DNA of 64,000 bases. Origin: Methanobacteriota archaeon (GTDB lineage Archaea; Halobacteriota; Bog-38; Methanoflorentales; Methanoflorentaceae). The notes under the pieces are model-generated. The model searched no databases. It was not told the DNA's origin and worked only from the letters and a program-made list of their open reading frames with translations. Positions 36,347 through 60,280 of the stretch are shown here, piece by piece. Position numbers and translations under genes: made by a program. The DNA lies in NCBI GenBank assembly GCA_963720465.1, contig OY970393.1, forward strand, positions 1,120,001 to 1,184,000, read 5' to 3'. The stretch's first letter is position 1. Every line of letters begins with the position of its first letter.

Positions 36347-36350
36347 TTCG

Positions 36351-43110: not shown

Positions 43111-43240
43111 GACGCATACGAGCGTGTCAGAAGATACGATAACGGCTACGGTCTGAAACCGGTAGCCAGAGGCAGCCCTCAATGCGCCCTAGGGCCTTGA
43201 AATAAAAAAAAGATAATGCGCTAGGAGCTACGAAGAGGCG
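43111..43240 (-). promoter_or_regulatory. Repeated upstream/promoter module, copy P3 (orphan, TATA degenerate)
   Basis: gacgcat...cgtgtcagaagata.gataacggctacggtctgaaaccggtagc...ccttgaaat matches 58016-58060, 36241 and 46655; no signal-peptide ORF follows. Confidence 0.65.
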
Positions 43241-43275
43241 AACAGAAACACGCTGCGCTATCCCTGTGACCTCTG

Positions 43276-43425
43276 CTAACTCGCCGTCACCGTCGCGTAC
43301 TTGGGCGCCATCGAAGCGCGCAGGCGCGTTCCTTGATACTTCGTGATGAATGCGTAGGTGCCGATATTCGGCTTCTGCGCGGTGAGCGAATACCAGCTGG
43401 TAGTGTTGGTCTTCGCGGTCGCCTC
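43276..43425 (-). pseudogene. Fossil C-terminal Ig half-domain downstream of the 43467 stop
   Basis: Translates EATAKTNTTSWYSLTAQKPNIGTYAFITKYQGTRLRASMAPKYATVTAS*; homologous DNA follows the stops at 46976 and 51531. Confidence 0.6.
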
Positions 43426-43466
43426 GTGCGTTATGCGCAAACAACACCCTCGCTAACGTGTCTCGA

Positions 43467-46400
43467 TTAATGTACGGTGATCGCCAGGACCGTGCTTGTC
43501 GATGCATTATACCACGTGTCGCCCGCGAAGGTGGCGTAGTAGTAGCGTGTGCCGGCTGATGTCCACTTCTGTGTGAACGTGGCCGTGCCGCTCGCGTTCG
43601 TATATATCGTTGTGTCGTTGTAGCGCACGCCGTTGAGGGTGTGCCAGATCTGTATCGGCTTGCCGCTCGCAGTGACGGCCACCCATTGGCTGGTTGCGGG
43701 GTTCCACCACGAGAGCGTGGCGGTGAAGGTGACGGACTGGTTGACGGCGGGGGTGGTGGTGGACGGGGTTAGGGTGACGTTGGTCTTGGCGGTGACGTTC
43801 ACCGTGACGACGCCGCACGTCGATGCTTGATAGGAGCTGTCACCGGCGAAGGTGGCGTAGTAGGAACGTGTGCCAGGAGAGGCCCAGCTTGTGGTGAGGG
43901 TGATCTGGCCGGTGGAGTTGGTGACGTTGGTGGTGTCGTTGTAGCGAATGCCGCTAAGGAGGTGGTAGATCGTAACGTTCTCTCCTGAGAGAGAGGCCCC
44001 ACTGCTACTCAAAGTGGCGTTGAAGGTGACCGGTTGGTTGACGAGGGGGGTGGTGTTTGACGCGGTGAGGGTGAGCGCGGTCGGCATCTTGGTGACGGTG
44101 GTGACGTTGATGGTGACGACGCTGCTTGTCGAGTTCTGATAGGAGCTGTCACCGGCGAAGGTGGCGTAGTAGGTGCGTGTGCCGGGAGAGCCAAAGCTCG
44201 TGGTGACGGTGATCTGACCGGTGGAGTTGGTGGTGTTGGTGGTGTCGTTGTAGCGGACGTTGTTGAGGAGGTGGTAGACCGTAACGTTCTCTCCTGGGAG
44301 GGGCGTTGTGCCGTTACTCAAGGTGGCGTTGAAGGTGACCGGTTGGCTGACGGCGGGGGTGGTGTTTGACGCGGTGAGGGTGAGCGCGGTCGGCATCTTG
44401 GTGACGGTGACGTTGACGACGTTGCTCGTGGCGGTGGTGTACGTGGCGTTCTCGTCGTAGGCGGTGCGGTAGTAGTACGTGCCCGCAGCTGACTCGTTGT
44501 TACTGAACTGATAGCCGCCCGTCGCATTGGTCACGTTCGTTGTGACGTTGTACCACGTGACGTTGTCTGTGGAACGCTGCAGGGTAATGGTCGCGTTACC
44601 CATCCCAACAGCGCTGGCACTCAGCGTGCCGTTGACGGTGAAGTTCTGGTTGACGGATGCTGTGGATGGGACGCTGACGGTGAGCGCGGTCGGCATCTTG
44701 GTGACGGTGACGTTGACGACGTTGCTCGTGGCGGTGGTGTACGTGGCGTTCTCGTCGTAGGCGGTGCGGTAGTAGTACGTGCCCGCAGCTGACTCGTTGT
44801 TACTGAACTGATAGCCGCCCGTCGCATTGGTCACGTTCGTTGTGACGTTGTACCACGTGACGTTGTCTGTGGAACGCTGCAGGGTAATGGTCGCGTTACC
44901 CATCCCAACAGCGCTGGCACTCAGCGTGCCGTTGACGGTGAAGTTCTGGTTGACGGATGCTGTGGATGGGACGCTGACGGTGAGCGCGGTCGGCATCTTG
45001 GTGACGGTGGTGACGTTGATGGTGACGACGCTGCTTGTCGAGTTCTGATAGGAGCTGTCACCGGCGAAGGTGGCGTAGTAGGTGCGTGTGCCGGGAGAGC
45101 CAAAGCTCGTGGTGACGGTGATCTGACCGGTGGAGTTGGTGGTGTTGGTGGTGTCGTTGTAGCGGACGTTGTTGAGGAGGTGGTAGACCGTAACGTTCTC
45201 TCCTGGGAGGGGCGTTGTGCCGTTACTCAAGGTGGCGTTGAAGGTGACCGGTTGGCTGACGGCGGGGGTGGTGTTTGACGCGGTGAGGGTGAGCGCGGTC
45301 GGCATCTTGGTGACGGTGACGTTGACGACGTTGCTCGTGGCGGTGGTGTACGTGGCGTTCTCGTCGTAGGCGGTGCGGTAGTAGTACGTCCCGGCGGCAC
45401 TCTCATTCCTGCTGAAGGCATATCCCCCGGTGCCGTTGGTGGTGTTTGCCATCGGTGGAGTGACGTTCGTCCACGTGGCGTTGTTCGTAAAGCGCTGCAG
45501 CGTAATGTTCCCGTCCGCAATGCCGGTAGTGTCGGTACGCAGCGTGCCGTTGATGGTGAAGTTCTGGTTAACATAGGCGGTGGCCGTAGAGACCGTGGCG
45601 TTGAGGGCAATCGCTGGGTAGTAAGTTTGTAGATTCGCGACTATCTGTGGGAATTCTAGGTTAGTATAATCATTAAGCGCGTTGGCATCATTGCCACACC
45701 ACACGCAAAACTGATTGAAGCCGATACCATTAGCATACGACCAATTCAGCATTGAAAGATATGATGGTGTGCTGCTGCTGCCGGGAAGTGAGTTGGCATA
45801 TATCTGGTTGTCGCTGTTGACGTTGGCCCACAAGCCTGCCATGACGCCGTTCTGGATGCCAAGCGCCGCGGCGTCTTTTGATCCATTTTGGATGTAAGGC
45901 CACTCAGATGGGTAGTAGCTCTCCCAACTGTTCAGGACCGTGAATGGGTTTATATACAAGTTTTGCCACAGGCCACAGTCGTCGCAATTGTAGTTTACGT
46001 ATGCCTTGAAAAAATTCTGCATGTAAGCAAGATCGGTCGAGTTGAGCCCCTCGGAGGCAACATATTCCCACCCGGCGTTTTCGAGTGATTGAAAGTAGGC
46101 ACGAAAACTGGTTATAGGGGTATTTTGAAGCTTTCCGCCGTTCCAAATGACCATTTCAACATCAATAACCGGCTGCATGCCAAGCGCTTTGATAGTATTG
46201 AGCTCGGCCTGGTATGTTCCATTGTCGGGAACTACCAGTTCTACGATGGAAAACCCGTATCCCTTAAAAGAGGCAAGTGACGAGCCATCATCTACCATCG
46301 ACGGCGGACCCGCGATAGCGTACTGTATCGGGTGCGTGGTGGCGCCTACGGTAGGGCTCGCGTTCGCCGTCGGACTTGGTAAACTCGCGGCATTTGCCGT

Positions 46401-46520
46401 CGCCGTTGTAATAGAAAGCAAAACCACAGCCAGAAGTAAAAAAGTCGCATATTTTCTACCACGCCGACTCCAAATGTGCGTGCGAGCGTGCGTTTTTCTA
46501 TGAGGGACTGACTTGTTCAT
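43467..46520 (-). CDS. Secreted protein: unknown (possibly GH-like) head + 7 Ig-like stalk repeats (B-A-B-B-A-A-A')
   Basis: RRGRK + hydrophobic signal; ~240-aa alpha/beta head; ~100-aa repeats including a perfect 300-bp tandem and a 909-bp-offset duplication. Confidence 0.85.
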   Translation of the reverse strand: MNKSVPHRKTHARTHIWSRRGRKYATFLLLAVVLLSITTATANAASLPSPTANASPTVGATTHPIQYAIAGPPSMVDDGSSLASFKGYGFSIVELVVPDNGTYQAELNTIKALGMQPVIDVEMVIWNGGKLQNTPITSFRAYFQSLENAGWEYVASEGLNSTDLAYMQNFFKAYVNYNCDDCGLWQNLYINPFTVLNSWESYYPSEWPYIQNGSKDAAALGIQNGVMAGLWANVNSDNQIYANSLPGSSSTPSYLSMLNWSYANGIGFNQFCVWCGNDANALNDYTNLEFPQIVANLQTYYPAIALNATVSTATAYVNQNFTINGTLRTDTTGIADGNITLQRFTNNATWTNVTPPMANTTNGTGGYAFSRNESAAGTYYYRTAYDENATYTTATSNVVNVTVTKMPTALTLTASNTTPAVSQPVTFNATLSNGTTPLPGENVTVYHLLNNVRYNDTTNTTNSTGQITVTTSFGSPGTRTYYATFAGDSSYQNSTSSVVTINVTTVTKMPTALTVSVPSTASVNQNFTVNGTLSASAVGMGNATITLQRSTDNVTWYNVTTNVTNATGGYQFSNNESAAGTYYYRTAYDENATYTTATSNVVNVTVTKMPTALTVSVPSTASVNQNFTVNGTLSASAVGMGNATITLQRSTDNVTWYNVTTNVTNATGGYQFSNNESAAGTYYYRTAYDENATYTTATSNVVNVTVTKMPTALTLTASNTTPAVSQPVTFNATLSNGTTPLPGENVTVYHLLNNVRYNDTTNTTNSTGQITVTTSFGSPGTRTYYATFAGDSSYQNSTSSVVTINVTTVTKMPTALTLTASNTTPLVNQPVTFNATLSSSGASLSGENVTIYHLLSGIRYNDTTNVTNSTGQITLTTSWASPGTRSYYATFAGDSSYQASTCGVVTVNVTAKTNVTLTPSTTTPAVNQSVTFTATLSWWNPATSQWVAVTASGKPIQIWHTLNGVRYNDTTIYTNASGTATFTQKWTSAGTRYYYATFAGDTWYNASTSTVLAITVH
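44401..45000. repeat. Perfect 300-bp tandem duplication (type-B repeat)
   Basis: 44401-44700 is identical to 44701-45000. Confidence 0.93.
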
Positions 46521-46611
46521 GGATGGCTCTGGCGAAAAAAGCTGCGACGCCTACAAATACCACGGTAATCAGAGTGGCTGCAAAAAACGAGACGATGTTG
46601 CATGCGCGCAT
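46498..46611 (-). pseudogene. Vestigial family signal-peptide ORF upstream of 43467..46520
   Basis: MRACNIVSFFAATLITVVFVGVAAFF is homologous to the leaders at 15820, 36206 and 51042, but is out of frame with the downstream gene. Confidence 0.7.
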
Positions 46612-46654
46612 GGCTCGAAAAACGTTCTTAGCCCTAAAAAAAATGTTAAAGGAT

Positions 46655-46760
46655 GATAAAGGCTGCGGTCTGAAACCGGTAGCGAAAGGCAGCACTCAAT
46701 GCGTCTAAGGCCTTGAAATCGAAAAAAAAAGGAATGACGAGCCGCTAAGGAGGGGATTAA
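46655..46760 (-). promoter_or_regulatory. Repeated upstream/promoter module, copy P4
   Basis: gataaaggctgcggtctgaaaccggtagcgaaaggcagcactcaatgcg...ccttgaaatcgaaaaa; CTTTAT ~45 bp before ATG 46611. Confidence 0.7.
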
Positions 46761-46975
46761 AGGAACACGCTCTGATAATGTGTGACCTCTGCTAACCCTC
46801 CCACCATCACGGTAGCTTATCGTGTCGCCGACCGGGTCCATTGATACTTCGGCAGGAACGCGTAGGTGCCGACGATATCGGCTCCCGCTCGGTGAGCGAA
46901 TACCAGCTGGTATTGTTGGTCTTCGCGGTCGCCTCGCGCGTTATGGCAAACAACGCCCTCGCTCGCGGGTCTGGA

Positions 46976-49687
46976 CTAATGAACGATGATCGTCACGACC
47001 GTGCTCGTCGTTGCCTGGTAGGAGCTGTCGCCGGCGAAGGTGGCGTAGTAGGTGCGTGTGCCGGGAGAGCCGAAGCTCGTGGTGACGGTGATTTGGCCGG
47101 TGGCGTTGGTGGCGTTGGTGGTGTCGTTGTAGCGGACGTTGTTGAGGTAGTGGTAGATGGTGACGTTCTCAGACGGGAGGGGGGTTCCACTGCTCGTCAA
47201 AGCGGCGTTGAAGGTGACGGATTGGTTGACGGTGGGGGTGGTGGTGGACGCGGTGAGGGTTACGCTCGTTTGAGGCTTGGCAGTGACGTTGACTGTGACG
47301 ACGCTGCTCGTTGAGTTCTGATAGGAGCTGTCGCCGGCGAAAGTGGCGTAGTAGGTGCGTGTGCCGGGAGAGCCGAAGCTCGTGGTGACGGTGATTTGGC
47401 CGGTGGCGTTGGTGGTGTTGGTGGTGTCGTTGTAGCGGACGTTGTTGAGGTAGTGGTAGATGGTGACGTTCTCAGACGGGAGGGGGGTTCCACTGCTCGT
47501 CAAAGTGGCGTTGAAGGTGACGGATTGGTTGACGACGGGAGTGGTGGTGGACCCGGTGAGGGTGAGCGCGTTCGCCGCCTTGGTGACGTTGACGGTGACG
47601 ACGCTGCTCGTGACGTTGCCGTACGTGGCGTTGCCGTCATAGGCGGTGCGGTAGTAGTATGTGTTCGCCGCCGACTCGTTGTTGCTGAACTGGTAGCCGC
47701 CCATCGCGTTCGTCACGTTCGTCGTGACGTTGCTCCACGTGGCGTTGTTCGTGGAACGCTGTAGGGTAATGGTCGCGTTACCTATCCCAACAGCGCTGGC
47801 GCTCAGCGTGCCGTTGACGAAGAAGTTCTGCTTCGTCAGTGCTGATCCCGGCGCGGCAATGGTGAGCGCGGTCGCAGCCTTAGTGACGCTGGTGACGTTG
47901 ACGGTGACGACACTGCTCGTCGATGCTTGGTAGGAGCTGTCACCGGCGAAGGTGGCGTAGTAGGTGCGTTGTCCGGGAGAGCCAAAGCTCGTGGCGACGG
48001 TGATCTGGCCGCTTTGGTTAGTGGCGTTGGTGGTGTCGTTGTAGCGGACGTTGTTGAGGTAGTGGTAGATGGTGACGGACTCCGACGGTAGGGCCGTTCC
48101 ATTGCTACTCAAGGTGGCGTTGAAGGCGACGGACTGGTTGACGGCGGGGGTGGAGTTGGACTCGGTGAGGGTGAGGGTGGTCGGCATCTTGGTGACGGTG
48201 GTGACGTTGATGGTGACGACGCCGCTCGTCGAGTTCTGATACGAGCTGTCGCCGGCGAAGGTGGCGTAGTAGGTGCGTTGTCCGGGAGAGCCGAAGCTCG
48301 TGGTGACGGTGATTTGGCCGGTGGCGTTGGTGGCGTTGGTGGTGTCGTTGTAGCGGACGTTGTTGAGGTAGTGGTAGATGGTGACGTTCTCGCCTGAGAG
48401 GGGGCTTGTCCCGTTACTCAAGGTGGCGTTGAAGGTGACCGGTTGGCTGACGGCTGGGGTGGTGTTTGACGCGGTGAGGGTGACGGTGGTCGGCATCTTT
48501 ACCGCCATGAAGACAGCCTCAAGCCATCCGTCTGAATTAACCTGGACTGTGGTGGGGTCAGCGTTTATGTTAGCGACGTAGACTCCGCTTCCAGAGGAGC
48601 CACTATGGCCACTGTACTCCCAATGATCGAATTGATAGCCGGTTGGAGCGTTTGCAGTAGCTTGATAGTTATTATCTGCATACTCCGCAGTCTGACCGTT
48701 AGAATAAGTTTGGCCACTAAAGGTAATCGTTCCCGGAGAAGCAGCAAAGCTTGTAGGATCCGTCTCAAATACTACAGTTGCCAGGGGATTGTGCACAAGC
48801 ACAGAGTTACCACTTATAATCACCGCTACGTTGCTTGGAGCCCCGCTGGACCAGGAAGTCCAGGTTGCAGCGTTTTCACCGCCACCGGTCGGTACCCAAT
48901 AGTTGTCGTAGAAGTAGAAGTCAAAGGCCGGAGAACCTCCAGAGGTGTCAGTCTGCCAGATCTCCTCATAGTCCGTATAGTTATAGTATCCCGAATAAAG
49001 GGAAGATACAACCAAGTAGTTTCCACCAGTAGGCGCGTCAAGGGACCAAACCTGTGTTGAATTTTGATAGGCAATGAACTGGGTGACGCCACCTTCGGTG
49101 GTAATGCTAAACGTGTAGGTAGCTCCTACGGACAGAGCCATGGCATTTGATGAATAATGATAGGTGGGATTACTTGCCGGACCACTTGTCCATGAGTAGC
49201 TTAATCCCCAGGTACCATACGTGTTAGAAAATCCGAGCTGATCGTAGCTTCCATTACTATCCCAAGCTGAAAGGATTACGTAATAGAATTCATCTGACAA
49301 AGGTGCAGAATAGGGAACCCTAATAGTCACGTTAATGGTCTGCGCAGTTTCGCTAGACCCCTGGTAGTCGCTCCCAGCATACCAGTGAGTACTATATTCT
49401 GGGGGAGAAACAGATGCTGAAGCAGATACAGGCGGTGCAAGTGTAGGATATATGGTACGCCCGCTAACCACGGGGAAGGACTGCCCCTGGGTCCAAGACA
49501 ACGCAGGTACCAGTCCGACCGTGCCGCCAAGCGTTTGCGAGACCGCAACTCCTGCGGCTTTCTGACCACTTGCTCCTCCTACGTTGCCCCCCGCGCTTAC
49601 GCTTGCAGAGCTGACACAGACTGCACAGAGGGAGACGAGCACGATAGTCGCTAAGACGATACTAATAAAACTTCGTTTATGATTCAC
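46976..49687 (-). CDS. Secreted protein: beta-rich head (possibly G1 glutamic-peptidase-like) + InlB-B-like repeat + 5 stalk repeats (A-A-B-A-A)
   Basis: Signal peptide MNHKRSFISIVL; head with HWYAG, YDQLGF and DYEE; GYQFDHW...WLEAVF repeat; stalk repeats. Confidence 0.8.
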   Translation of the reverse strand: MNHKRSFISIVLATIVLVSLCAVCVSSASVSAGGNVGGASGQKAAGVAVSQTLGGTVGLVPALSWTQGQSFPVVSGRTIYPTLAPPVSASASVSPPEYSTHWYAGSDYQGSSETAQTINVTIRVPYSAPLSDEFYYVILSAWDSNGSYDQLGFSNTYGTWGLSYSWTSGPASNPTYHYSSNAMALSVGATYTFSITTEGGVTQFIAYQNSTQVWSLDAPTGGNYLVVSSLYSGYYNYTDYEEIWQTDTSGGSPAFDFYFYDNYWVPTGGGENAATWTSWSSGAPSNVAVIISGNSVLVHNPLATVVFETDPTSFAASPGTITFSGQTYSNGQTAEYADNNYQATANAPTGYQFDHWEYSGHSGSSGSGVYVANINADPTTVQVNSDGWLEAVFMAVKMPTTVTLTASNTTPAVSQPVTFNATLSNGTSPLSGENVTIYHYLNNVRYNDTTNATNATGQITVTTSFGSPGQRTYYATFAGDSSYQNSTSGVVTINVTTVTKMPTTLTLTESNSTPAVNQSVAFNATLSSNGTALPSESVTIYHYLNNVRYNDTTNATNQSGQITVATSFGSPGQRTYYATFAGDSSYQASTSSVVTVNVTSVTKAATALTIAAPGSALTKQNFFVNGTLSASAVGIGNATITLQRSTNNATWSNVTTNVTNAMGGYQFSNNESAANTYYYRTAYDGNATYGNVTSSVVTVNVTKAANALTLTGSTTTPVVNQSVTFNATLTSSGTPLPSENVTIYHYLNNVRYNDTTNTTNATGQITVTTSFGSPGTRTYYATFAGDSSYQNSTSSVVTVNVTAKPQTSVTLTASTTTPTVNQSVTFNAALTSSGTPLPSENVTIYHYLNNVRYNDTTNATNATGQITVTTSFGSPGTRTYYATFAGDSSYQATTSTVVTIIVH

Positions 49688-50244
49688 CCACTCCCCTCCC
49701 CGCTGCAGCGAACAGTCAGGCGCCGCTTCCGTGTGAAATCAGAAACTAAAACATATAAGCTTAAGCACATCCGCGATAAAGATTATGTGACGCGGGATTT
49801 TCACCATATGTGCAGACGGCGCCATTTACGTATTGAAGTTTGGTTTGCGCTCAACGCTTAGAATACGGCCTTTTTGACTCTAATGACAGCGTCAGAGCAA
49901 AGCGATCATGTAATGTGAGATGCAGTGTATAGGTAACGACCAGGAGGGGAAAAATGATTTTACAGGGCGTATTTCTAACTGAGGGCGATGCAGAGCTTTT
50001 TAGTCGTGCGCTGGCAGAAGTGAAGACAAGGTATGTGCAGGCTCCGACACGAGCTTGGATAATACCTAGGACTAAATGCGCTCGTTTCAAGCTTCAGAAC
50101 CGCTGCGAAAACAGGACGAGAGCCTGAGAGATCTAGATTCAAGCGCCCGAAAGTAGACTCGCTGAATAAACTCAATCCATTGTTATGTTTAAATAGATCT
50201 AAAGATTTTTTATAAGAAGCTTTCACTTCAAGAGATGATGCAAT

Positions 50245-50751
50245 GTGAACAAGGTTCTTATTGCCTTGTCTTCTATCGCTGTTCTTGTGGCACTAGCGGC
50301 AGTTGTCGTGTTTGCCGCTCAACATGCACAGCCGCAGACAGCTCGAACGACTACTGGAACGACTACAACTATGGCAACAAATGTGGCGGGGCTTCCCCCT
50401 TTCGCAAACCCCGATTTCGACGTACTGCTACGTCCGTCTATTGCCGCTATTCCAGACAGCGGGGGATCAGTCAGTGTATCTATCACATTGAAAGCGACAC
50501 ACCTGAATACTAGCGAATTGCTAGTTCTTGAGACGCATTCCAAGATCCCAGGATATGTGGCTGACTTCAAGCCCACATCAGTAACGCTCCATCCTGGTGA
50601 TTTGACCAGTGCAGAATTAACGGTCGTTATCCCTAGCGGGATCCAGAATGGCACCTACCCAATATCTATTGTGGCGAGGGGGGAAACGACTCAAGGCGGA
50701 AGCTGGTTGATACTTGTAGTTGGTCTCGCACAGCCAATCCCGCCACCCTAG
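50245..50751 (+). CDS. Small secreted or membrane-anchored protein with one Ig-like domain
   Basis: Hydrophobic N-terminus, Thr-rich linker, PTSVTL...LTVVIP..GTYPISIVA pattern; ttttataa box upstream. Confidence 0.65.
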   Translation: MNKVLIALSSIAVLVALAAVVVFAAQHAQPQTARTTTGTTTTMATNVAGLPPFANPDFDVLLRPSIAAIPDSGGSVSVSITLKATHLNTSELLVLETHSKIPGYVADFKPTSVTLHPGDLTSAELTVVIPSGIQNGTYPISIVARGETTQGGSWLILVVGLAQPIPPP

Positions 50752-50811
50752 CAATTCGACGCATAAAATTCACTTCTTTGTCAGAGTGCGCGGCATCGTT
50801 CAACATGAGCC

Positions 50812-51042
50812 ATAGCGACGGCCGGGGAAGAGTCAACCAGTTTCCGGTCGTGAAGTTCCACAGCAGCCTTCTGTTCGACGACACTGGCCCTCCAACCGGG
50901 CTATAATCACCAGTGTGCTGGGCGTTATAATGAAACATCATCGTATCGGCCTGTGCGCTGCAGGAACGGTTACAGCGCCTGCGAATAAGACAGCAATGAG
51001 AAGAATGACTATAGAAAATGGCACGATTTTGCACGCGCGCAT
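50812..51042 (-). pseudogene. Truncated, frameshifted paralogue of the PQQ-like propeller gene
   Basis: MRACKIVPFSIVILLIAVLFAGAVTV / QADTMMFHYNAQHTGDYSPVGG...LLWNFTTG / DSSPAVA vs QYDTMQFRYSAQHTGDYSPVAG at 36.1 kb; promoter-module core at 51099. Confidence 0.85.
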
Positions 51043-51530
51043 GAGTACCTCTTGCAATGTTCGCAGACGCTAGACGCCTAAAAACGTCCAGAAGAAACTA
51101 TAAAGGCTTCGGTTGAAATGTGACCGCAGAAACTGTGCATGGTGTTCAAGTGGTCAAAAAATGAATACGTTCGAGCGATCAGACACGCGTTTGATCGCCA
51201 TTCTTTCCGCCTTCGTTGCGGCCGCTTACCGGTGCCTTTTTTCTTGGTAGGTTCTCCTTTGTTCGGAGTGTGCTGCGCAGCCAGTAGTTGAAACGCTGCT
51301 ACCGCGACGGCGCTTCATTTACGCCCCCCAACACCTTGTTTGCGACAGCCGTACTCTTCCTTCTTTCTACCGCCGCCGAAACGTATCTCTTAAGATTAGG
51401 TCTGGCCCAGAAGCCAACCTTTGGTGCCACATTTGGCTCCCGCGTGGCGAGCGAATATCAGCTGGTATTGTTGGTCTTCGCGGTCGCCTCGCGCGTTATG
51501 GCAAACAACGCCCTCGCTCGCGGGTCTGGA

Positions 51531-54500
51531 CTAATGAACGATGATCGTCAGAACCGGGCTCGTTGTCGATGCTTGGTAGGAGCTGTCGCCGGCGAAAGTG
51601 GCGTAGTAGGTGCGTGTGCCGGGAGAGCCGAAGCTCGTGGTGACGGTGATTTGGCCGGTGGCGTTGGTGGTGTTGGTGGTGTCGTTGTAGCGGACGTTGT
51701 TGAGGTAGTGGTAGATGGTGACGTTTTCTCCTGAGAGAGGGGTTCCACTGCTCGTCAAAGTGGCGTTGAAGGTGACGGATTGGTTGACGGTGGGGGTGGT
51801 GGTGGACGCGGTGAGGGTTACGCTCGTTTGAGGCTTGGCAGTGACGTTGACTGTGACGACGCTGCTCGTTGAGTTCTGATAGGAGCTGTCGCCGGCGAAA
51901 GTGGCGTAGTAGGTGCGTGTGCCGGGAGAGCCGAAGCTCGTGGTGACGGTGATTTGGCCGGTGGCGTTGGTGGTGTTGGTGGTGTCGTTGTAGCGGACGT
52001 TGTTGAGGTAGTGGTAGATGGTGACGTTCTCAGACGGGAGGGGGGTTCCACTGCTCGTCAAAGTGGCGTTGAAGGTGACGGATTGGTTGACGACGGGAGT
52101 GGTGGTGGACCCGGTGAGGGTGAGCGCGTTCGCCGCCTTGGTGACGTTGACGGTGACGACGCTGCTCGTAGCGTTGGTGTAGGTGGCGTTGCCGTCATAG
52201 GCGGTGCGGTAGTAGTAGAGGTTCGCCGCCGACTCGTTGTTACTGAATTGGTAAGCACCGGTCGGGTTCGTCACGTTCGTCGTGACGTTGCTCCACGCGG
52301 CGTTGTTCGTGGAACGTTGCAACGTTATAGTCGCGTTACCTATCCCAACGGCGCTGGCGCTCAACATGCCGTTAATCGTGAAGTTCTGCTTCGTCAGTGC
52401 AGATGCTGGCGCGGCAATAGTGAGCGCGTTCGCCGCCTTGGTGACGGTGATGACGTTGACGGTGACGACACTGCTCGTCGATGCTTGGTAGGAGCTGTCG
52501 CCGGCGAAGGTGGCGTAGTAGGTGCGTGTGCCGGGAGAGCCAAAGTTTGTGGTGACGGTGATCTGACCGGTGGAGTTGGTGACGTTGGTGGTGTCGTTGT
52601 AGCGGACGTTGTTGAGGTAGTGGTAGATGGTGACGTTTTCTCCTGAGAGGGGCGTTGTGGCGTTACTCAAGGTGGCGTTGAAGGTGACGGGTTGGTTGAC
52701 CGTGGGAGTGGTGGTGGACGCGGCGAGGGTGAGGGTGGTCGGCATCTTGGTTACGTTGACGGTGACCGTGTTGCTCGTGGCGTTGCCGTCATAGGCGGTG
52801 CGGTAGTAGTAGGTGCCCGCAGCCGACTCGTTGTTGCTGAACTGGTAGCCGCCCGTCGTGTTCGTCAGGTTCGTCGTGACGTTCGTCCACGCGGCGTTGT
52901 TCGTGGAACGTTGCAACGTTATAGTCGCATTCGCAGTGCCTGTCGTACCGGTGCTCAGCGCTCCGTTTATCGTGAAGTTCTGCTTGATGGTAACCGTCGT
53001 CGGTGAGGCACTCGCCGTAAGGGAGAAGGAGGATTGCGACTCAAACGCGTGAATGTTGGCGACATAGGAGTTTGTTGCGCCGTAGGCTACTGCTAGGTCG
53101 CTCCACGTCGTTCCGTCTAGACTTTCGAAGCTTTGCCCGGCTACAGCATTTGGCGCGTTGCTATCATAGCCAGACACCCGCTGCTGTACAGGAAGCGGAT
53201 AGTCGTCTCCTGGCGTACTGAACTTGATCACGACAGCAAACGTCTCACCCTTCGTCAGATTCACAGTCGGGCTCAGGCTCTCGGTGTAGTACCCTGCATA
53301 AGAGACCGTGCCCGAGATGGTCGACATAAGGGTACCGCTCGTCGGGATGTTGGAGTTTGTGGGGTTAACGTAGACCTGTGCCGTATACTGGGTTCCCTGG
53401 ACGGGTGCCCAGAAGCTTACCGCTTTAAGCGTCCCAGTGGAGTTGGCCGTAAAGACGTTCGCTCCGTAGGCGGTAGGAGAAGACCCCGATCCAATGGTGC
53501 TTTCCATTCCAAAGGGGTCATACTGGTAATTCGCCGTGTAGTTCGTCGTTGGTTCAGCGGTGAAGACCGTGTTTTCCCGGTAGCCCATGTTGAGGTCGTA
53601 GTACGACACGTAGAAGTACCCGGACTGACCAAACTGCGTGCCCCAGCTGTTCTTGCAGATCCATGCACCGTTTCCGGGCGGGGTTGCAGAGAAGTTCTTC
53701 GCGGAGAAGTTATCATTCCAGCCCACTATGGTCACAGCGTGGTTGGCTCCCGTTGTGCTCCCATCGTAGTAGGCCGCTGTCGCTTGATTCCAATAGGAGG
53801 TGGTTGAAGAGGCAGCCCCCTCCCACTGGAAGGCGGTATATACGCCGCCATACGTCATCAGCGCAGACTTTATGGCGTTGTTGTCCAGTGCTGACTGCTT
53901 CAGCGGCAGGAAATACACGTTTTGAACGTGCATCGCTATCTGAGACGTGGTCGCACTGGAGGTGCACGACGAATCACTGTATGGGTCAGACGCGCTCGTC
54001 ACCGGCCCTCCGTGGATCGTGGAGCCAGTGGCATCCGTCTGGGTGGTGCCCCACCGGGCGAGGTAGGCGGTTGACATCGCTGAATCGCCGCCGGCACAGC
54101 ACGTGTAGTCGAAATCGGCTAAGTTCTTTAGGTTGTTCTCTGAATATTGCGTGGTCACCCCAGGCAACAGATACGATTCGAGCGAGCCGAACGTGGCAAA
54201 CGTCCAGCAGCTTCCGCACTGGCCCTGATTCTCCACAGGGCTCACCTTGTTTAAGGTGCGAAGGTCGTACGTCGTCGGGTACTGCTGCGCCTGCGCAAGG
54301 CTTGTAGCGGTGGGCAGTTTCGAAAGTTCATAGGGTGGCGGGACCCATCCGAGACCGAGTCCGTCAACGGTTTGCGTCGCCACTTTTCCGGCCGACTTGT
54401 TCTGCTGATATTGCACAAAGGCGGGGTTTAGCGGCTCTTTCTGCAGCGCTACCGGAAGCGACGCGCTTGTCTGCGCAACGGGGGCGCTGCTGTTATTTTG

Positions 54501-54584
54501 TGCGAGCACCAGCCCCGTGGTTCCCAGAGAACCTAACAGAAGGATCACCAGGACGAGTGCGGCCCATTTTGTTCGTAATTGCAT
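51531..54584 (-). CDS. Secreted papain-family (C1A) cysteine peptidase + lectin-like domain + 5 stalk repeats (B-A-B-A-A)
   Basis: PLNPAF propeptide, YDLR, QGQCGSCWTF, NHAVTIVGW, KNSWG, GYFYVSY, then YQYDPFG...GQSF lectin-like domain; likely ATG 54584. Confidence 0.92.
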   Translation of the reverse strand: MQLRTKWAALVLVILLLGSLGTTGLVLAQNNSSAPVAQTSASLPVALQKEPLNPAFVQYQQNKSAGKVATQTVDGLGLGWVPPPYELSKLPTATSLAQAQQYPTTYDLRTLNKVSPVENQGQCGSCWTFATFGSLESYLLPGVTTQYSENNLKNLADFDYTCCAGGDSAMSTAYLARWGTTQTDATGSTIHGGPVTSASDPYSDSSCTSSATTSQIAMHVQNVYFLPLKQSALDNNAIKSALMTYGGVYTAFQWEGAASSTTSYWNQATAAYYDGSTTGANHAVTIVGWNDNFSAKNFSATPPGNGAWICKNSWGTQFGQSGYFYVSYYDLNMGYRENTVFTAEPTTNYTANYQYDPFGMESTIGSGSSPTAYGANVFTANSTGTLKAVSFWAPVQGTQYTAQVYVNPTNSNIPTSGTLMSTISGTVSYAGYYTESLSPTVNLTKGETFAVVIKFSTPGDDYPLPVQQRVSGYDSNAPNAVAGQSFESLDGTTWSDLAVAYGATNSYVANIHAFESQSSFSLTASASPTTVTIKQNFTINGALSTGTTGTANATITLQRSTNNAAWTNVTTNLTNTTGGYQFSNNESAAGTYYYRTAYDGNATSNTVTVNVTKMPTTLTLAASTTTPTVNQPVTFNATLSNATTPLSGENVTIYHYLNNVRYNDTTNVTNSTGQITVTTNFGSPGTRTYYATFAGDSSYQASTSSVVTVNVITVTKAANALTIAAPASALTKQNFTINGMLSASAVGIGNATITLQRSTNNAAWSNVTTNVTNPTGAYQFSNNESAANLYYYRTAYDGNATYTNATSSVVTVNVTKAANALTLTGSTTTPVVNQSVTFNATLTSSGTPLPSENVTIYHYLNNVRYNDTTNTTNATGQITVTTSFGSPGTRTYYATFAGDSSYQNSTSSVVTVNVTAKPQTSVTLTASTTTPTVNQSVTFNATLTSSGTPLSGENVTIYHYLNNVRYNDTTNTTNATGQITVTTSFGSPGTRTYYATFAGDSSYQASTTSPVLTIIVH

Positions 54585-54941
54585 TTGATCGCCGACGTGG
54601 TATCGTTCGGTTAGTCTTACGTGCGACAACGGTTGTTGTTGGCCATCGTGCTTCGGTTACTTTCTACGCACGTCCAACCGACACACTTATGCGCGATTTC
54701 GCGGTGAACTCGGTATACCGTTCTGCTTCCCTACGGAAGTGCTTTGCGGCAGACGCAGGGTGTCGCGGCCCTAAGGTGCCGCTCGCAATGCTTAATCACT
54801 TTACGTTCTACACATAAAGCATTATCACGCGCACCTGTGCGCCGCAGAAGCTCGCTCGGAAGCATGGTCGTGGTGAAGCGGTGGCATTCAAAGAAGCTGG
54901 CCAGAAAGCCTCTCAAGAGTGCAAAACAAGTAACTTGATGG

Positions 54942-55127
54942 TTAGCGAACAGCTTCGCCGTTGCGTTCGAGGAGCCACATAACCAAAACGAATAGCGCGA
55001 TCCCAACCCCCATGACGGGTCGCGTCAAAATATCAACGAAGCGCTCTTTTAGCCGATCAAGCCATCCGATCTCGGCTTCAAAAGGCGCATCAATGACGTG
55101 CCTCGAATCAATTTCGTATTTTTCCAT
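54942..55127 (-). CDS. Small protein with C-terminal TM helix
   Basis: 61 aa with hydrophobic VMGVGIALFVLVMWLL; TTTATATAA box ~50 bp upstream. Confidence 0.45.
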   Translation of the reverse strand: MEKYEIDSRHVIDAPFEAEIGWLDRLKERFVDILTRPVMGVGIALFVLVMWLLERNGEAVR

Positions 55128-55851
55128 AGCACTGTCTTCCGGTCGAAAGCCCTTTTTAATCGTCTCATTGCGTATTATATAAATCTTGCGAAAATAACTA
55201 ATACAAGATCAACAAAGTTTGTCAATATTGTCTTTTGATGACAACTCGCCGACATATCTGATCTCTAACGGTAGTCGAGCAGATGACCGCAAATGCCCGG
55301 GCGTTGGTGGGGTGGCGTCCGCAACTCCATAAAACACGCTTTCATTTCGTCGCCTTTCAAAGCACGCCCCTCGTAATCCGAATCATAGCAACCGCGAGTG
55401 CCACGCGAAACGCTCTGTCGCAAAAAGTGCGGAGATCAGCCTCATTAGCAACGAAAGAAGCTCCACATTGCACGCTTTTTATCCGCTGTTAGAGCGGCAC
55501 TATGTGTCGACGTGAGCAGCAAAGAGATTACAGATAGCCTATTTCTTGTGGCCTGTGTAAGTCCGGGGTTGGATTGCGTTCACAGAGGTGTTTGTGCTGA
55601 CTGTGACAACCCCTCTGCAAGAACACGCTAAAAGTTGAAGAAAGAGGAAAGAACACCTTTTCGCGACCTGTTAATTCGCAGTTACTGTCACGGTAGCGAG
55701 CCTGGTTGCCATCAAGTGGGCATTGCCCCCCTTGAAACTCAAAGGTGGCAGCTTAAGGCCCTTTCCCGACGAGCAAATAGCAGCCGGTGCGTAGATCTTC
55801 GCAGTCGACTCGTGTTTCGTGCACAAAAACGCTTTGGCTAGCGTGTCTGCA

Positions 55852-57990
55852 CTATTGAACGGTGATCGTCACGACGGTGCTTGTCGATGTTAGATAGGTG
55901 CTGTCACCGGCGAAGGTGGCGTAGTAGGTGCGTGTGCCGGGGGAGCCGAAGCTCGTGGTGACGGAGATCTGGCCGGTGGCGTTGGTGGTGTTGGTCGTGT
56001 CGTTGTAGCGGACGTTGTTGAGGTAGTGGTAGATAGTGACGGACTCAGACGGGAGGGGGGTTCCACTGCTCGTCAAGGTGGCGTTGAAGGTGACAGGTTG
56101 GTTGACGGCGGGGGTGGTGGTGGACGGAGTGAGCGTGAGCGCGGTCGGCGTCTTGGTGACGTTGGTGACGTTGACGGTCACGACAATGCTTGTCGATGCT
56201 TGATAGGAGCTGTCACCGGCGAAGGTGGCGTAGTAGGTGCGTGTGCCGGGGGAGCCGAAGCTCGTGGTGACGGAGATCTGGCCGGTGGCGTTGGTGGTGT
56301 TGGTCGTGTCGTTGTAGCGGACGTTGTTGAGGTAGTGGTAGATAGTGACGGACTCAGACGGGAGGGGGGTTCCACTGCTCGTCAAGGTGGCGTTGAAGGT
56401 GACAGGTTGGTTGACGGCGGGGGTGGTGGTGGACGGAGTGAGCGTGAGCGCGGTCGGCGTCTTGGTGACGTTGGTGACGTTGACGGTCACGACAATGCTT
56501 GTCGATGCTTGATAGGAGCTGTCACCGGCGAAGGTGGCGTAGTAGGTGCGTTGTCCGGTGGAGCCAAAGCTTGTTGTGACGGTGATCTGACCGGTGGTGT
56601 TGGTGGTGTTGGTGGTGTCGTTGTAGCGGGTGGTGCTCGTGCCGATGTAGTGGTAGATCGTGACGTTCTCTCCTGAGAGTGGTGTTGTGCCGTTACTCAA
56701 GGTGGCATTGAAGGTGACCTGCTGATTGACGGCGGGGGTGGAGTTGGACGCGGTGAGGGTGAGGTTCGTCGCCGTCCTCTGCGTTGCAGTGGCTGTCGCC
56801 ACCATAAGCGTTAAGAGATGATACGAACTGTCAAGCGTGTTTACGAGGAAGGTGCCGTTTGGGTCAGTGAGTTGTGATGAGATCGCGTGCTCAAACGAAT
56901 CTTCAAATGATGTGCTATAAACTGGGAATGCTGATGACCACGAGTTATTATGCCTCACCGCGCAGTAAAGCGTGTTGTACGCCGTCCATGTGACTAGTAT
57001 ATCGCCATTGGTTGGGTTAAACGTCAGCATCGGCGACGAAACCGCTGGCTCTGCGCCGGTTGCGAGCACGACTTCGGGGGCCCACGTGCCATTCGCGTTG
57101 CGTTGTGCGTAGCGGATTTGTCCCGTCGTGGACTGATACACAAGGTGAACGATGCCGTCACCGAGACCGTCAGCAAAAATACGCCCGACGTAGGTGTTTG
57201 CATTGCTTGCGGTGTCTTCCACGGGTAGTGCGGTGATATTTCCTTCTGCGGTGAACGTGGAGCTGCCTGTGGTGCTTATATACCCTAGTGAGCGTATATT
57301 ATAGCCCCATTCATAATTCACCGTATATACCCCGCCATTGGAAAGCGGCGCTAAGATTTGATTACCTAGGAGATGGACAGGAAATCCCGACGCCGTAGCC
57401 CACGTCCCATCAGTCTTGGTATTCTTTGTAATCCAATCATTATAGCCTATCCACAGGTGCTGATTCGTGTCGATAACCATATTCGGGTCGCTTACCATAA
57501 CGGACGAGGCTATAGCAGTTTGCCAAGGCTGGTCCCAACTTATCGTTCCGTTTGACTGCAGAGAGCCACGCCGTACAATAAAGCCATAATTACCGTTGCT
57601 ACTGAGTGATGCATCAGATAGTCCAACCCACACTTTGTTATTGGTCGAGTCATACGAGACGGTAAAAACTGCGTCGTAGGCAACGTTATGGCCTAACGAC
57701 GTTGGGGACGACCACGTAGCGCCGCCGTCTGACGATGTGATATAACTGAGTGATCCGGTGCCCGCGTTCTTGGAATACGCGCCATAAAAAAACCACCACA
57801 ACCCCGCAGCGTAAAAGCTCTTGCGTTGATGGGGCAGTCTCGACACGGCCCCGTCGCCGGCGACGGTTTCGATGATAGAGACTTTAGATACGGCGACGTT
57901 AGAGGTCGCTGAAACCGTGGCTAGTTCAGCGAAGAGCGTCGTAATAAGCAGCACCGCCACAATAAAGGAGAACAATCTTGCGTGTGACAT
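55852..57990 (-). CDS. Secreted Asp-box (BNR) beta-propeller-like protein + 3 type-A stalk repeats
   Basis: Signal MSHARLFSFIVAVLL; SSDGGATWS Asp-box; beta-rich blades; perfect 309-bp tandem at ~55901-56550. Confidence 0.8.
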   Translation of the reverse strand: MSHARLFSFIVAVLLITTLFAELATVSATSNVAVSKVSIIETVAGDGAVSRLPHQRKSFYAAGLWWFFYGAYSKNAGTGSLSYITSSDGGATWSSPTSLGHNVAYDAVFTVSYDSTNNKVWVGLSDASLSSNGNYGFIVRRGSLQSNGTISWDQPWQTAIASSVMVSDPNMVIDTNQHLWIGYNDWITKNTKTDGTWATASGFPVHLLGNQILAPLSNGGVYTVNYEWGYNIRSLGYISTTGSSTFTAEGNITALPVEDTASNANTYVGRIFADGLGDGIVHLVYQSTTGQIRYAQRNANGTWAPEVVLATGAEPAVSSPMLTFNPTNGDILVTWTAYNTLYCAVRHNNSWSSAFPVYSTSFEDSFEHAISSQLTDPNGTFLVNTLDSSYHLLTLMVATATATQRTATNLTLTASNSTPAVNQQVTFNATLSNGTTPLSGENVTIYHYIGTSTTRYNDTTNTTNTTGQITVTTSFGSTGQRTYYATFAGDSSYQASTSIVVTVNVTNVTKTPTALTLTPSTTTPAVNQPVTFNATLTSSGTPLPSESVTIYHYLNNVRYNDTTNTTNATGQISVTTSFGSPGTRTYYATFAGDSSYQASTSIVVTVNVTNVTKTPTALTLTPSTTTPAVNQPVTFNATLTSSGTPLPSESVTIYHYLNNVRYNDTTNTTNATGQISVTTSFGSPGTRTYYATFAGDSTYLTSTSTVVTITVQ

Positions 57991-58158
57991 ACGCGTCTCG
58001 CATCGCAAACGACTTGACGCATGAAAACGTGTCAGAAGATATCATAAAGGCTGCGGTTTGAGGACATTCTAGTTTAAACGTAACGTATCTGTGCGATTCA
58101 ATGACGCTGCTATGCAAGGCGCTGTATCAGGACGCAGTTGTGAGGGTTCTAGTCTGTT

Positions 58159-59700
58159 TTACGTCACCTTCACCTTCACCGGAGCGCTCGTCGTGGACTG
58201 ATACGTCGCCGTCCCCGCGTATGACGCTCCGTAGGAGTAGATGCCATTCGTCGTCTCCTTCACCGAGAAAGTGTAGGCGCCCAGGGCTACGGCGGAGTTA
58301 TTTGTTTTCGTGGTGGCTACGGTGGTGTCGTACTTGCCACTGGTAGCGGAGTATTCAAGGAGGGTGAGGGTCGCGTTCCCGATACCCGTGTGATTGGTAG
58401 TGGCATTGTCAGTGAGCCTGCCCTGCACTTGAAAGGTCGTGTACACGCTCGCGGTCGCGGCGGCGGTGGCGTTAAGTGATGTGGGGTGCTTGACGCTCAC
58501 CATAAGCGCTAAGAGGTGATATGAACTATCAAGGGTGTTTACGAGGAAGGTGCCGCTTGGGTCAGTGAGTTGCGACGAGATCGCATGCTCAAACGAGTGC
58601 TCAAATGATGTGCTATAAACTGGGAATGCTGATGACCACGAGTTATTATGCCTCACCGCGCAGTAAAGCGTGTTGTACGCCGTCCATGTGACTAGTATAT
58701 CGCCATTGGTTGGGTTAAACGTCAGCATCGGCGACGAAACCGCTGGCTCTGCGCCGGTTGCGAGCACGACTTCGGGGGCCCACGTGCCATTCGCGTTGCG
58801 TTGTGCGTAGCGGATTTGTCCCGTCGTGGACTGATACACAAGGTGAACGATGCCGTCACCGAGACCGTCAGCAAAAATACGCCCGACGTAGGTGTTTGCA
58901 TTGCTTGCGGTGTCTTCCACGGGTAGTGCGGTGATATTTCCTTCTGCGGTGAACGTGGAGCTGCCTGTGGTGCTTATATACCCTAGTGAGCGTCCGTTCA
59001 CATCCCAAACGTAATTCACCGTATATACTCCACCGTCAGAAAGCGGCGCTAAAATCTGGTTGCCAGTCAGATGGACGGGAAATCCAGATGCCGTAGCCCA
59101 CGTGCCATTGGTGTTGGCGTTCTTTGTAATCGTGTTATTATAGCCTATCCAAAGGTGCTGATTTGTGTCAATGACCATATTGGGATCGCTCACAGCGGTT
59201 GTTGCCGCGATAGCAGTTTGCCAAGGCTGGTCCCAAGTTATCGTTCCGTTTGACTGCGGAGAGCCACATCGTACGATAAAACCGTAATTACCGTTGCTAC
59301 TGAGTGATGCATCAGATAGTCCAACCCACACTTTGTTATTGGTCGAGTCATACGAGACGGTAAAAACTGCGTCGTAGGCAACGTTATGGCCTAACGACGT
59401 TGGAGACGACCACGTAGCGCCGCCATCCGAGGATGTGATATAACTGAGTGATCCAGGAGCGTCGTCGGGGTATGCGCCATAAAAAAACCACCATAACCCC
59501 GCAGCGTAAAAGCTCTTGCGTTGATGGGGTACTCTCGAAACCGGCGCGTCGCCTACCCTGCCGGTTGTGATGATAGCGACGTGAGATACTGCGAAGTTAG
59601 AGGTCGCCGGAACCGTAGCTAGTTCAGCGAAGAGCGCGGCGATAAGCAGCACCGCCACAATTGCCGCCACAATTAAGGAAAACAATCTTTTGTGCGACAT
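58159..59700 (-). CDS. Paralogous Asp-box propeller-like protein + single divergent Ig domain
   Basis: Head nearly identical to that of 55852..57990; C-terminus differs after YHLL.LMV. Confidence 0.82.
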   Translation of the reverse strand: MSHKRLFSLIVAAIVAVLLIAALFAELATVPATSNFAVSHVAIITTGRVGDAPVSRVPHQRKSFYAAGLWWFFYGAYPDDAPGSLSYITSSDGGATWSSPTSLGHNVAYDAVFTVSYDSTNNKVWVGLSDASLSSNGNYGFIVRCGSPQSNGTITWDQPWQTAIAATTAVSDPNMVIDTNQHLWIGYNNTITKNANTNGTWATASGFPVHLTGNQILAPLSDGGVYTVNYVWDVNGRSLGYISTTGSSTFTAEGNITALPVEDTASNANTYVGRIFADGLGDGIVHLVYQSTTGQIRYAQRNANGTWAPEVVLATGAEPAVSSPMLTFNPTNGDILVTWTAYNTLYCAVRHNNSWSSAFPVYSTSFEHSFEHAISSQLTDPSGTFLVNTLDSSYHLLALMVSVKHPTSLNATAAATASVYTTFQVQGRLTDNATTNHTGIGNATLTLLEYSATSGKYDTTVATTKTNNSAVALGAYTFSVKETTNGIYSYGASYAGTATYQSTTSAPVKVKVT

Positions 59701-60280
59701 GGGCAGACAAAATGACTTGAGGAATGAAAAAGCGAAGGAGCGCAGATAAAGATTGTGGTGTGACGTAGCTCACAAAAAAATAGAACCGCGTGCAATCGCA
59801 TAAAAAACTATTATTTTTTCAGCACGCGGATTAGGCTCTCGATGGGCTGTTTCCAAAAAATGTGATTACGATGAGCCGCCAAATGTGACAAATTACGTGC
59901 ATTGGAGGCTGAGAGTCGACAAAGAGCGCTTTTTATATAGCGACGGATCCCGCGTCCGCGTATTTTTCGTGGACCAGTCGCACAACCGCAGAAACAGTGG
60001 GAGTAACAAAAGACGAATTTCTCAGAAAACACTGCGCATCTGCGTTGGGGAGCTGCAGCACTTGGATAAGAGCCGAACCTGCGATCCCCATCTGCCCCCT
60101 CAAATAAGTATCGGCCGCGAATTTCTCAGCGTTTTTCAAGTAAGCGGGCGGCCGCAGTGCAAGCGCTTCAAGCCGTTGCGGCACAGCCGTTGCTTTGACG
60201 CAACGCCCTCTCAGTGCAGTGCTGTCAAACAAGGACGATTGGGGTAAAGTGCTTTATGCTAGAGGCACAATGGTTCTGGT

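Follow-up and report, generated by a model that had tools for sequence, protein, structure and literature searches.

A lineage-specific immunoglobulin-like module shared by secreted proteins of a Bog-38 methanogen and by viral enzymes is a candidate envelope-binding domain

Gram-positive endolysins and autolysins are built from a catalytic domain, a linker and a cell-wall-binding domain. Lysis enzymes of archaeal viruses and wall-binding domains have, as far as the available parts of the two accounts go, been described mainly for pseudomurein-walled methanogens (PMC10791045, PMC12596118). In PeiW and PeiP a binding domain of N-terminal 30-35-residue repeats (PMBR) is joined to a papain-like cysteine protease, and according to the accessible text this wall-binding domain is common to viral lytic enzymes and host surface proteins (PMC2989375). 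The adhesin-like proteins (ALPs) of Methanobrevibacter and Methanosphaera form the other group to be considered; the available part of their description recognizes an archaeal big domain (ABD) by at least one seven- or nine-stranded module in tandem (PMC11532034). Here we describe a 64,000-nucleotide stretch (the window), positions 1,120,001-1,184,000 of the single-contig 2.31-Mb genome G000 (91% complete) from a member of the Bog-38 methanogen family, which carries six genes for secreted proteins combining a variable head with immunoglobulin (Ig)-like modules of two types, A and B. This uncultured methanogen family, which we take to be the Methanoflorens lineage, inhabits peatlands and freshwater sediments. 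Our literature search, with supplements and most subscription papers outside its reach, found no account in which the envelope of this lineage, its surface proteins or its lytic enzymes are treated. On balance, comparative evidence leads us to consider it rather probable that module A is an envelope-binding domain of Bog-38 methanogens, that part of the heads are autolysin-like and that their variety arises by ordinary recombination. In what follows G000 is the genome of the window, other G numbers are genomes of relatives, and L and P numbers are loci and proteins.

A sequence-only reading of the window had proposed six secreted proteins with heads on A and B modules and without a C-terminal anchor, and this was borne out by open reading frames (ORFs), profiles and hydropathy (Table 1). 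All six proteins possess an N-terminal hydrophobic stretch (maximum Kyte-Doolittle value of a 15-mer 2.36-3.35) with Ala-rich ends that look cleavable, and the final 60 residues contain no such stretch in any of them (0.58-1.53). The C-terminal signal of PGF motif, helix and basic end was found neither in the six window proteins nor in 120 A-bearing proteins. Sequons are dense (67, 43, 44, 25, 11 and 12 in the six proteins), and the genome encodes an STT3/AglB oligosaccharyltransferase in addition to an archaeal 16S gene and mcrA. The window itself is a surface-glycan region with genes for glycosyltransferases, two Wzx-type flippases, NeuB and PMT_2 proteins (Pfam). Regarding the heads, the same reading fared less evenly. 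The two propeller heads, listed as unrelated, are paralogues, and their classification as Asp-box propellers stands on weak matches (BNR_2 E 0.0015, below cut-off; neuraminidase E 6.5e-5). The term G1-peptidase-like for the head of 46976-49687 found no backing, as neither this head nor 24 homologues match any Pfam family or, by sequence, any PDB entry. In the C1A head of 51531-54629, on the other hand, the catalytic Cys, His and Asn motifs can be seen in the sequence. Most of the proteins end on A as described, but 58159-59700 ends on neither A nor B, and of the 20 module-bearing ORFs matched in the genome by window-derived profiles (15 of them with strong A) three have A in an N-terminal or internal instead of the usual terminal position. 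Other heads in the genome comprise GH113, a thioredoxin-like domain, a second C1A and an unnamed C-terminal domain. There are also three further copies of the 43467-46520 head, one split by a frame break. A frame-broken paralogue of this head with a single A lies at 820918-822205 of G000 (L003).

The fold of A and B is already known, namely that of invasin-type Ig domains of the Big_3_5 family. A model of an A-A pair (pLDDT 96.5) shows seven-stranded Ig beta-sandwiches with invasin 1CWV as the top structural match (Z 12.6), and Pfam Big_3_5 (PF16640) is found above its gathering cut-off of 35.5 in five of the six window proteins (156.5, 127.5, 94.2, 92.5 and 58.5 bits); the whole protein 58159-59700 gave no Big_3_5 match in Pfam. 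No solved structure related to A was found by sequence, and A has no PHROG match. The earlier reading had regarded a known Ig family with fixed architectures as incompatible with its proposal; the family is indeed known, but the architectures vary across relatives. Big_3_5 is a broad model for stalk domains, whereas A is a tight, narrow and lineage-specific subfamily, strong only in the Bog-38 family and in viruses: among 41 genomes, A matches occur in 19 of the 23 other genomes of the family as opposed to one of 17 genomes of other families, and there weakly. The closest named match to A stems from a bog_38 bin, followed by other Methanomicrobia/Halobacteriota bins. Compared with the methanogen ALPs in the available text, both sets feature tandem seven-stranded Big_3_5 modules with invasin 1CWV as nearest structure, so that fold and nearest structure place the modules within the definition of the ABD; Asn/Thr-rich sequences, papain, PQQ and glycosidase domains and an N-terminal hydrophobic helix are also shared (PMC11532034). 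The likeness rests on fold. The proteins reported here belong to a different phylum, show no right-handed beta-helix, have modules that are far more alike down to exact DNA tracts, carry a conserved His-Tyr-Asp-Arg patch, interchange the stalk with lectin blades or a PGF anchor and have their module in common with viral enzymes. The stalk family is thus a new, lineage-specific variant of archaeal adhesin-like proteins.

The head of 43467-46520 offers the clearest view of what may replace A. It is modeled as a TIM barrel (pLDDT 90.9), and D77, E79, E114, D137, E157 and E163 are invariant in 24 sequences of its family. The top fold match is the wall hydrolase Cwp19 of C. difficile (Z 15.9, rmsd 3.3, 221 aligned residues, 9% identity), near-tied within 1 Z with pyruvate kinase and SleL, that is, with hydrolases and other barrels alike. 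The head has no Pfam or NCBIfam match and at best sub-0.9 matches in the Atlas. Its family is present in 23 of 24 Bog-38-family genomes, the sole genome without it being 59% complete, and in none of 277 other genomes of the phylum. Among 86 homologues, lectin-like blades follow the head in 26, a Pro/Thr linker plus C-terminal helix in 21, A in 12 and another Ig module in seven, while the tail is missing or partial in 20; all tail types begin at one common junction. In P0011, P0022 and P0023, heads that are 94-96% identical are followed by a B-like Ig, lectin blades and A, respectively. In a quick tree of the heads, from which 15 of the 86 proteins were excluded for short head coverage, helix-tailed members form essentially one clade and A and lectin tails are interleaved; the eight changes counted for the A label are overstated by one, since two distant helix-tailed rows were labelled A.

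Other heads show the same alternation. The PQQ heads, to whose family 34956-36206 belongs, bear A stalks in relatives; within one signal-peptide family, a PGF anchor was found 14 times, A 14 times, lectin blades once and another tail four times, and never PGF together with A. Elsewhere, heads homologous to that of 46976-49687 are followed by A A A, by B B A A or by lectin-like blades, and A also alternates with lectin blades on thioredoxin-like heads. The blades match PF07938, PF26607 and NF052348 and are fucose-lectin-like. A is the last domain in 100 of the best 120 of 267 A proteins, a list that favours those with many copies, and a C-terminal helix is absent from all 120; the parts outside the modules fall into 13 clusters of at least two. 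The genome of the window possesses two exo/archaeosortase genes and eight PGF-type tails, so PGF-CTERM anchoring is present but as an alternative to A, and no A-bearing protein carries the signal. The tails A, lectin-like blades and membrane anchor are mutually exclusive. Together with the swaps against lectin blades and the position of A in viral proteins, this exclusivity gives the docking role first suggested for A good support by comparison.

Two features of the helix-tailed members and their surroundings may be mentioned here. An exo/archaeosortase-family gene below every subtype cut-off is located directly upstream of a TIM-barrel gene (L011:2901-6637, corresponding to G000 2220900-2224636), and a sortase gene adjoins the TIM-barrel gene also in six of 77 metagenome loci. 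The helix-tailed proteins feature a Leu-Pro-Pro-Gln motif followed by helix and basic residues without matching any NCBIfam sorting signal. It is possible that the adjacent gene and the Leu-Pro-Pro-Gln tail constitute a new sortase-signal pair.

The same combinations recur in viruses. Seventeen tailed-virus contigs, six found via A and 11 via the TIM-barrel head, encode signal-less enzymes (TIM-barrel head family and/or papain peptidase) that continue through a Pro/Thr linker into A or lectin blades and reside near terminase and portal genes. On the six A contigs, both enzymes are encoded between the small and large terminase genes and each has one terminal A, with just the peptidase visible on one contig that is cut; their TIM-barrel protein is a distant family member (profile probability 92.9%, in an alignment that includes the tail). 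The 11 further contigs contain closer TIM-barrel homologues (37-47%), two ending in A and nine in lectin blades. Where both enzymes are tailed, in 10 contigs from three virus groups, the tails always agree (A/A 6, lectin/lectin 4, mixed 0). Sister viruses L215 (A, A) and L216 (lectin, lectin) have switched both tails together; their DNA is 84-95% alike and the heads are identical at 256/262 (TIM-barrel) and 226/262 positions. In five viral A modules H41, Y48, D50 and R73 are preserved. A search of all 50%-identity representatives with the head family gave 99 matches, including more signal-less proteins of head plus A or head plus lectin, one with both tails, and eight large proteins with an additional match to the distal-tail-like domain of P0146 and P0195. 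At least eight large proteins thus combine the TIM barrel with such a domain, and two of them also end in A; a viral origin of these proteins is indicated by weak matches to SPP1_Dit, Sipho_tail and Prophage_tail, scans of viral sequences with P0195 and P0146 as queries returned no match, and neither tail-like protein has a PHROG match.

The arrangement of the viral enzymes, encoded by tailed viruses, lacking a signal peptide and consisting of catalytic domain, linker and terminal module, is that of endolysins. As in the Gram-positive systems, the C-terminal module is exchangeable and secreted host copies, signal-less viral copies and tail-associated copies exist side by side; here, however, the host is an archaeon without known wall polymer and the catalytic family is without a Pfam or NCBIfam model. 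With PeiW and PeiP the proteins have in common, as far as the available text shows, a binding domain occurring in viral lytic enzymes and host surface proteins alike and its fusion to a papain-like cysteine protease (PMC2989375). The domain differs, being a C-terminal Ig sandwich instead of N-terminal short repeats, and the protease is a Peptidase_C1 accompanied by a second, TIM-barrel enzyme. PMBR gave no match in the window proteins or the viral enzymes, and the pseudomurein Mur-ligase set was not found in G000, where a single weak Mur_ligase_M match (24.9 bits) lies 7 kb from mcrA.

The viruses probably infect hosts of the Bog-38 family. This assignment is based on the restriction of the head family, on imperfect spacer matches, on short DNA matches of L215 that are confined to the host genus (12 of 17 same-genus versus none of six other-genus genomes) and on a terminase ATPase domain that is 67% identical to a gene of G015. 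No near-perfect match was found between the 55 spacers and the viral loci or the 17 records, and a portal query revealed no provirus in 24 genomes. A 35/36-nt match of L215 to G000 was dismissed as a CRISPR spacer because it lies in a fasciclin-like host gene. The L215 segments 15442-15485 and 16973-17067 match conserved genes of the host genus, among them this fasciclin-like gene, from an apparently non-coding place, and short stretches of L215 show 92-97% identity in nine genomes. The CRISPR array of G000 is located at 2081484-2085878 (L220), with 59 repeat matches and 55 extracted spacers. A small-terminase-like and a terminase-ATPase gene are found at the same chromosomal place in G000 (456649-458011) and G015 (L218:11437-13883) without neighbouring virion genes; their identity to the terminase of the viral loci L186-L190 is 40% and 67%.

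We propose that A, as a lineage-specific Ig domain of the Big_3_5 type, grips the cell envelope non-covalently, most likely by way of a surface glycan. Enzymes, propellers and redox domains exported via Sec would be kept at the surface by one or several A modules in place of a membrane anchor, and lectin-like blades or such an anchor could fill the tail slot instead. B and extra copies of A may provide a glycosylated spacer and raise avidity. Remodelling of the envelope in the manner of autolysins would fall at least to the TIM-barrel head and probably also to the C1A and deacetylase heads, and viruses would draw on these head and tail families for their endolysin-like and tail-associated enzymes. 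Variety of stalks and array would stem from gene conversion and from unequal crossing-over wherever module DNA is nearly identical or 3' ends are shared. As a putative hydrolase family is nearly universal in one archaeal family and reused by its presumed viruses, the simplest assumption is that it acts on the host's own envelope, and as a terminal module common to these enzymes trades places with lectin blades, the simplest assumption is that it binds that envelope. In this way a guess about docking becomes a specific and testable claim on an undescribed methanogen envelope, and the enzymes become candidates for a second archaeal-virus lysis and wall-binding system, in an uncultured methanogen family. 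Module A might serve as a probe for staining Bog-38 cells or pulling them down, and the TIM barrel, being restricted to the family, might mark the lineage as well as its viruses; the substrate of the two viral enzymes would define an unknown archaeal envelope. More tentatively, it is conceivable that the Bog-38 family possesses an undescribed glycan wall or capsule, possibly peptide-linked and neither pseudomurein nor a Methanosarcina-type S-layer (its domain PF07752 was not found in G000), with a hydrolase family of its own (the TIM barrel of 43467-46520) and a binding domain of its own (A, exchangeable with lectin blades), and that viruses use a glycosidase and a cysteine peptidase on exit and a tail-borne glycosidase on entry. 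If so, tail type would track envelope type and virus host range.

Several observations weigh against A as an envelope-binding domain of autolysin-like proteins. A TIM-barrel fold is by itself insufficient to establish hydrolase function. That the patch residues are kept in 408 A modules (H41 96%, R47 83%, Y48 94%, D50 95%, R73 93%) and lacking from 151 other Ig modules speaks for the proposal, but this count is partly circular because the modules were selected by the A profile. The distribution within the genus argues that A is dispensable as a general tail: G011, a single-contig genome of the same genus, has three A matches compared with 57 in G000, and four of 17 same-genus genomes, 59-67% complete, have none. 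A is moreover found N-terminally, internally, in a membrane protein and in a HEAT-repeat protein. The PQQ tree needs merely two or three tail changes, and exclusivity of A and anchor may be mechanical, as a captured stalk brings its own stop codon. Anchoring by the N-terminal helix has been proposed for the adhesin-like proteins of methanogens in the accessible text (PMC11532034), and by analogy the N-terminal helix of the module proteins might be an uncleaved anchor. On the viral side, the 17 contigs amount to about six groups, so that the concordance of tails comes from few independent cases, the peptidase is tail-less in three contigs, and the best spacer match covers 26 of 29 nt (E ~1e-4).

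Alternatively, A and B could be inert spacers of ordinary adhesin-like proteins that are tethered by the N-terminal helix or released, with variety as the usual by-product of recombining repeats. Big_3_5 scores above cut-off, the invasin-type fold and the similarity to the ABD of Methanobrevibacter and Methanosphaera proteins, most of which are anchored at the N-terminus according to the available description and among which papain, PQQ and glycosidase domains occur (PMC11532034), fit this idea, as do the patchiness of A within the genus and the heavy lineage-specific gain of sequons in G000 (median per module ~5-6 versus 0-1 in G005 and G008), which suits a glycosylated spacer. Yet a module at the distal C-terminus of an N-anchored protein does not lift the head, a lone terminal A on viral enzymes made in the cytoplasm has nothing to space, one signal-peptide family serves PGF-anchored and A-tailed PQQ proteins alike, and A interchanges with lectin-like blades, so we regard inert spacers as rather unlikely. 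The swap with fucose-lectin-like blades would also be expected if A were a carbohydrate-binding module for external or matrix polysaccharide (peat, biofilm, partner cells) and the proteins were aimed away from their producer; GH113, GHL15 and deacetylase domains are present among the heads, and viruses could degrade capsule or matrix with A enzymes. Thioredoxin-like, protease and PQQ heads do not need a substrate-binding module, however, the restriction of the TIM-barrel family to one methanogen family, nearly all of whose genomes have it, suits a substrate of the cell itself, and the signal-less viral copies adjoin packaging genes. An external target is therefore unlikely in our view.

Table 1. 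Genes, remnants and repeat tracts of the window (positions within the window; A and B, module types)
Position	Strand	Feature
13958-15820	-	secreted; divergent Ig, DUF2334/polysaccharide-deacetylase-like domain, A A'
23738-23935	-	orphan broken B-module fragment
34956-36206	-	PQQ-propeller gene with PGF-type C-terminal membrane anchor; start inferred from signal-peptide alignment
36347-36525	-	orphan fragment (B-module end and A-module start) upstream of the PQQ-propeller gene
43357-43466	-	3' untranslated stretch common to 46880-46975, 51423-51530 and module genes elsewhere in the genome
43467-46520	-	secreted; TIM-barrel glycoside-hydrolase-like head (~45606-46391), stalk B A B B A A A' (43470-45614)
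44070-45389		intragenic exact repeats of 411 bp (44070 = 44979) and 331 bp (44379 = 44679)
46976-49687	-	secreted; unassigned-family head, stalk A A B A A (46979-48499)
47204-47611		408-bp tract identical to 51762-52169; conversion or recent exchange
50813-51042	-	degenerate PQQ-propeller gene remnant in the array; shared promoter and signal-peptide family, then frame breaks
51531-54629	-	secreted papain-family C1A peptidase, Lectin_like domain, stalk B A B A A (51534-53030)
55852-58008	-	secreted; propeller-like head with one Asp-box-like motif, stalk A A A (55855-56772)
55900-56551		intragenic exact tandem repeat of 343 bp, A-A duplication
56903-57295		393-bp tract identical to 58601-58993, inside both propeller heads, module-free
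58159-59700	-	head paralogous to that of 55852-58008 (90% at the nucleotide level over 1170 bp), one divergent terminal Ig

How the array acquired its variety can be followed in the DNA. Exact tracts of 411, 408, 393, 343 and 331 bp within and between module genes are far above chance. The 408-bp tract links the stalks of genes with unrelated heads, with 83-98% identity in the flanking stalk DNA, and the 393-bp tract lies in heads devoid of modules, from which it follows that conversion is not module-specific. Gene conversion has been reported in polyploid euryarchaea, according to the accessible parts of two studies (PMC8223754, PMC4632066). Stalk genes have a ~100-bp 3' stretch in common, stalk and 3' end moving as a unit, and many secreted genes have a common promoter and signal-peptide family. 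In a quick tree of 71 A modules, built from 99 columns and with many open forks, the genome label changes 16 times (shuffled mean 32.7) and the head label 30 times (43.5). Relatives have different genes in the slot enclosed by the CAAX-protease gene and the flippase: L126 and L128 contain both a C1A gene (B A A) and a TIM-barrel gene (A A), L115 solely a C1A gene with B A B A A ahead of the flippase, and L131 a 46976-type head with B B A A. The idea of a recombination-driven toolkit is supported over evolutionary time by these tracts, tail swaps, differing arrays and the tree, but this support does not extend to active shuffling or a dedicated system. By sequence, array variety is accounted for by concerted evolution and unequal exchange, and the shuffling looks like ordinary homologous recombination (conversion, unequal crossing-over) without dedicated recombinase. 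Recombinational shuffling as such is ordinary; what gives the locus its value is the tie to lysis-type enzymes of viruses.

A programmed, actively switching cassette system with its own recombinase or retroelement could be suspected from the tandem co-oriented array, the shared 3' ends and the orphan fragments, and a broken small tyrosine recombinase adjoins 13958-15820 (16049-16576, plus strand, divergent from that gene, in-frame TGA at 16460-16462). Two single-contig variants of the same species, P0115 lacking one A and P0145 combining a GH113 head with the 43467 tail, could be strain variants or misassemblies, and the reciprocal metagenome chimeras L110 and L114 likewise resemble exchanged cassettes. 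The latter meet at a 547-bp exact repeat, as a collapsed short-read assembly also would, and repeat collapse gives the same picture for the short array L115, so all three were discarded as proof of shuffling. The active shuffling suggested at the outset found no support, as all three joint sequences checked in four read sets map to paralogous genes of G000 and other assemblies mostly have the same architectures. Over unique parts, short-read contig sets show near-zero differences and even depth; no rearranged form was found at 42600-61000 in four contig sets of one study, sets of a kind that drops rare variants. Hallmarks of shufflons, integrons and diversity-generating retroelements are lacking in that no linked intact recombinase, no reverse transcriptase and no junction sites were detected: neither reverse transcriptase nor serine recombinase was found in G000, the junctions searched share no motif, and the 10 tyrosine-recombinase matches of the genome are mostly fragments without significant nearness to A genes (p 0.12-0.22). 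With conversion tracts also in module-free heads, programmed switching appears very improbable. The opposite suspicion, that identical tracts and some architectures are artefacts of assembly or polishing in a repeat-rich region, is nourished by exact repeats of 331-411 bp, which break short-read contigs, and by the lack of any listed piece spanning the array. It is exceedingly improbable, as long contigs of the same organism yield identical full-length proteins (the 43467 product on three contigs and one more, the 46976 product on two), though these possibly derive from one study, and repeat collapse cannot create swaps between non-homologous tails.

Some further observations concern the surroundings of the array and unusual carriers of A. 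The 43467 gene and a GH113-A-A-A gene reside 280 kb apart in opposite orientation; the spacers behind them are 76% alike, and the flippases that come next are paralogous (window 41144-43466 and L006:5918-8269). Paralogues of a CPBP/Rce1-like intramembrane protease flank the array (window 60537-61859 and L012:4700-5833), one of them with an N-terminal Ig-like part; weak matches to families of CTERM-processing proteases all stay below cut-off. An inverted repeat of ~67 bp resembling a miniature inverted-repeat transposable element (13671-13737 and 13877-13943, within window 13654-13943) has short copies elsewhere in the genome. Five same-genus genomes, among them G011 with almost no other A, encode a polytopic DUF2206 membrane protein of ~900 residues that has most of an A near its C-terminal end (L078:5923-8577, L079:4878-7577, L084:4250-6949, L086:3116-5935 and L102:3645-6365). 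Near a terminase-like gene of G007 lies the gene for a 1655-residue HEAT-repeat protein that contains two A-like modules and apparently lacks a signal peptide (L074:5594-10561). Finally, a 235-kb contig titled as a beta-proteobacterial bin (L051, L055) bears typical A-module genes and is probably a mislabelled archaeal bin.

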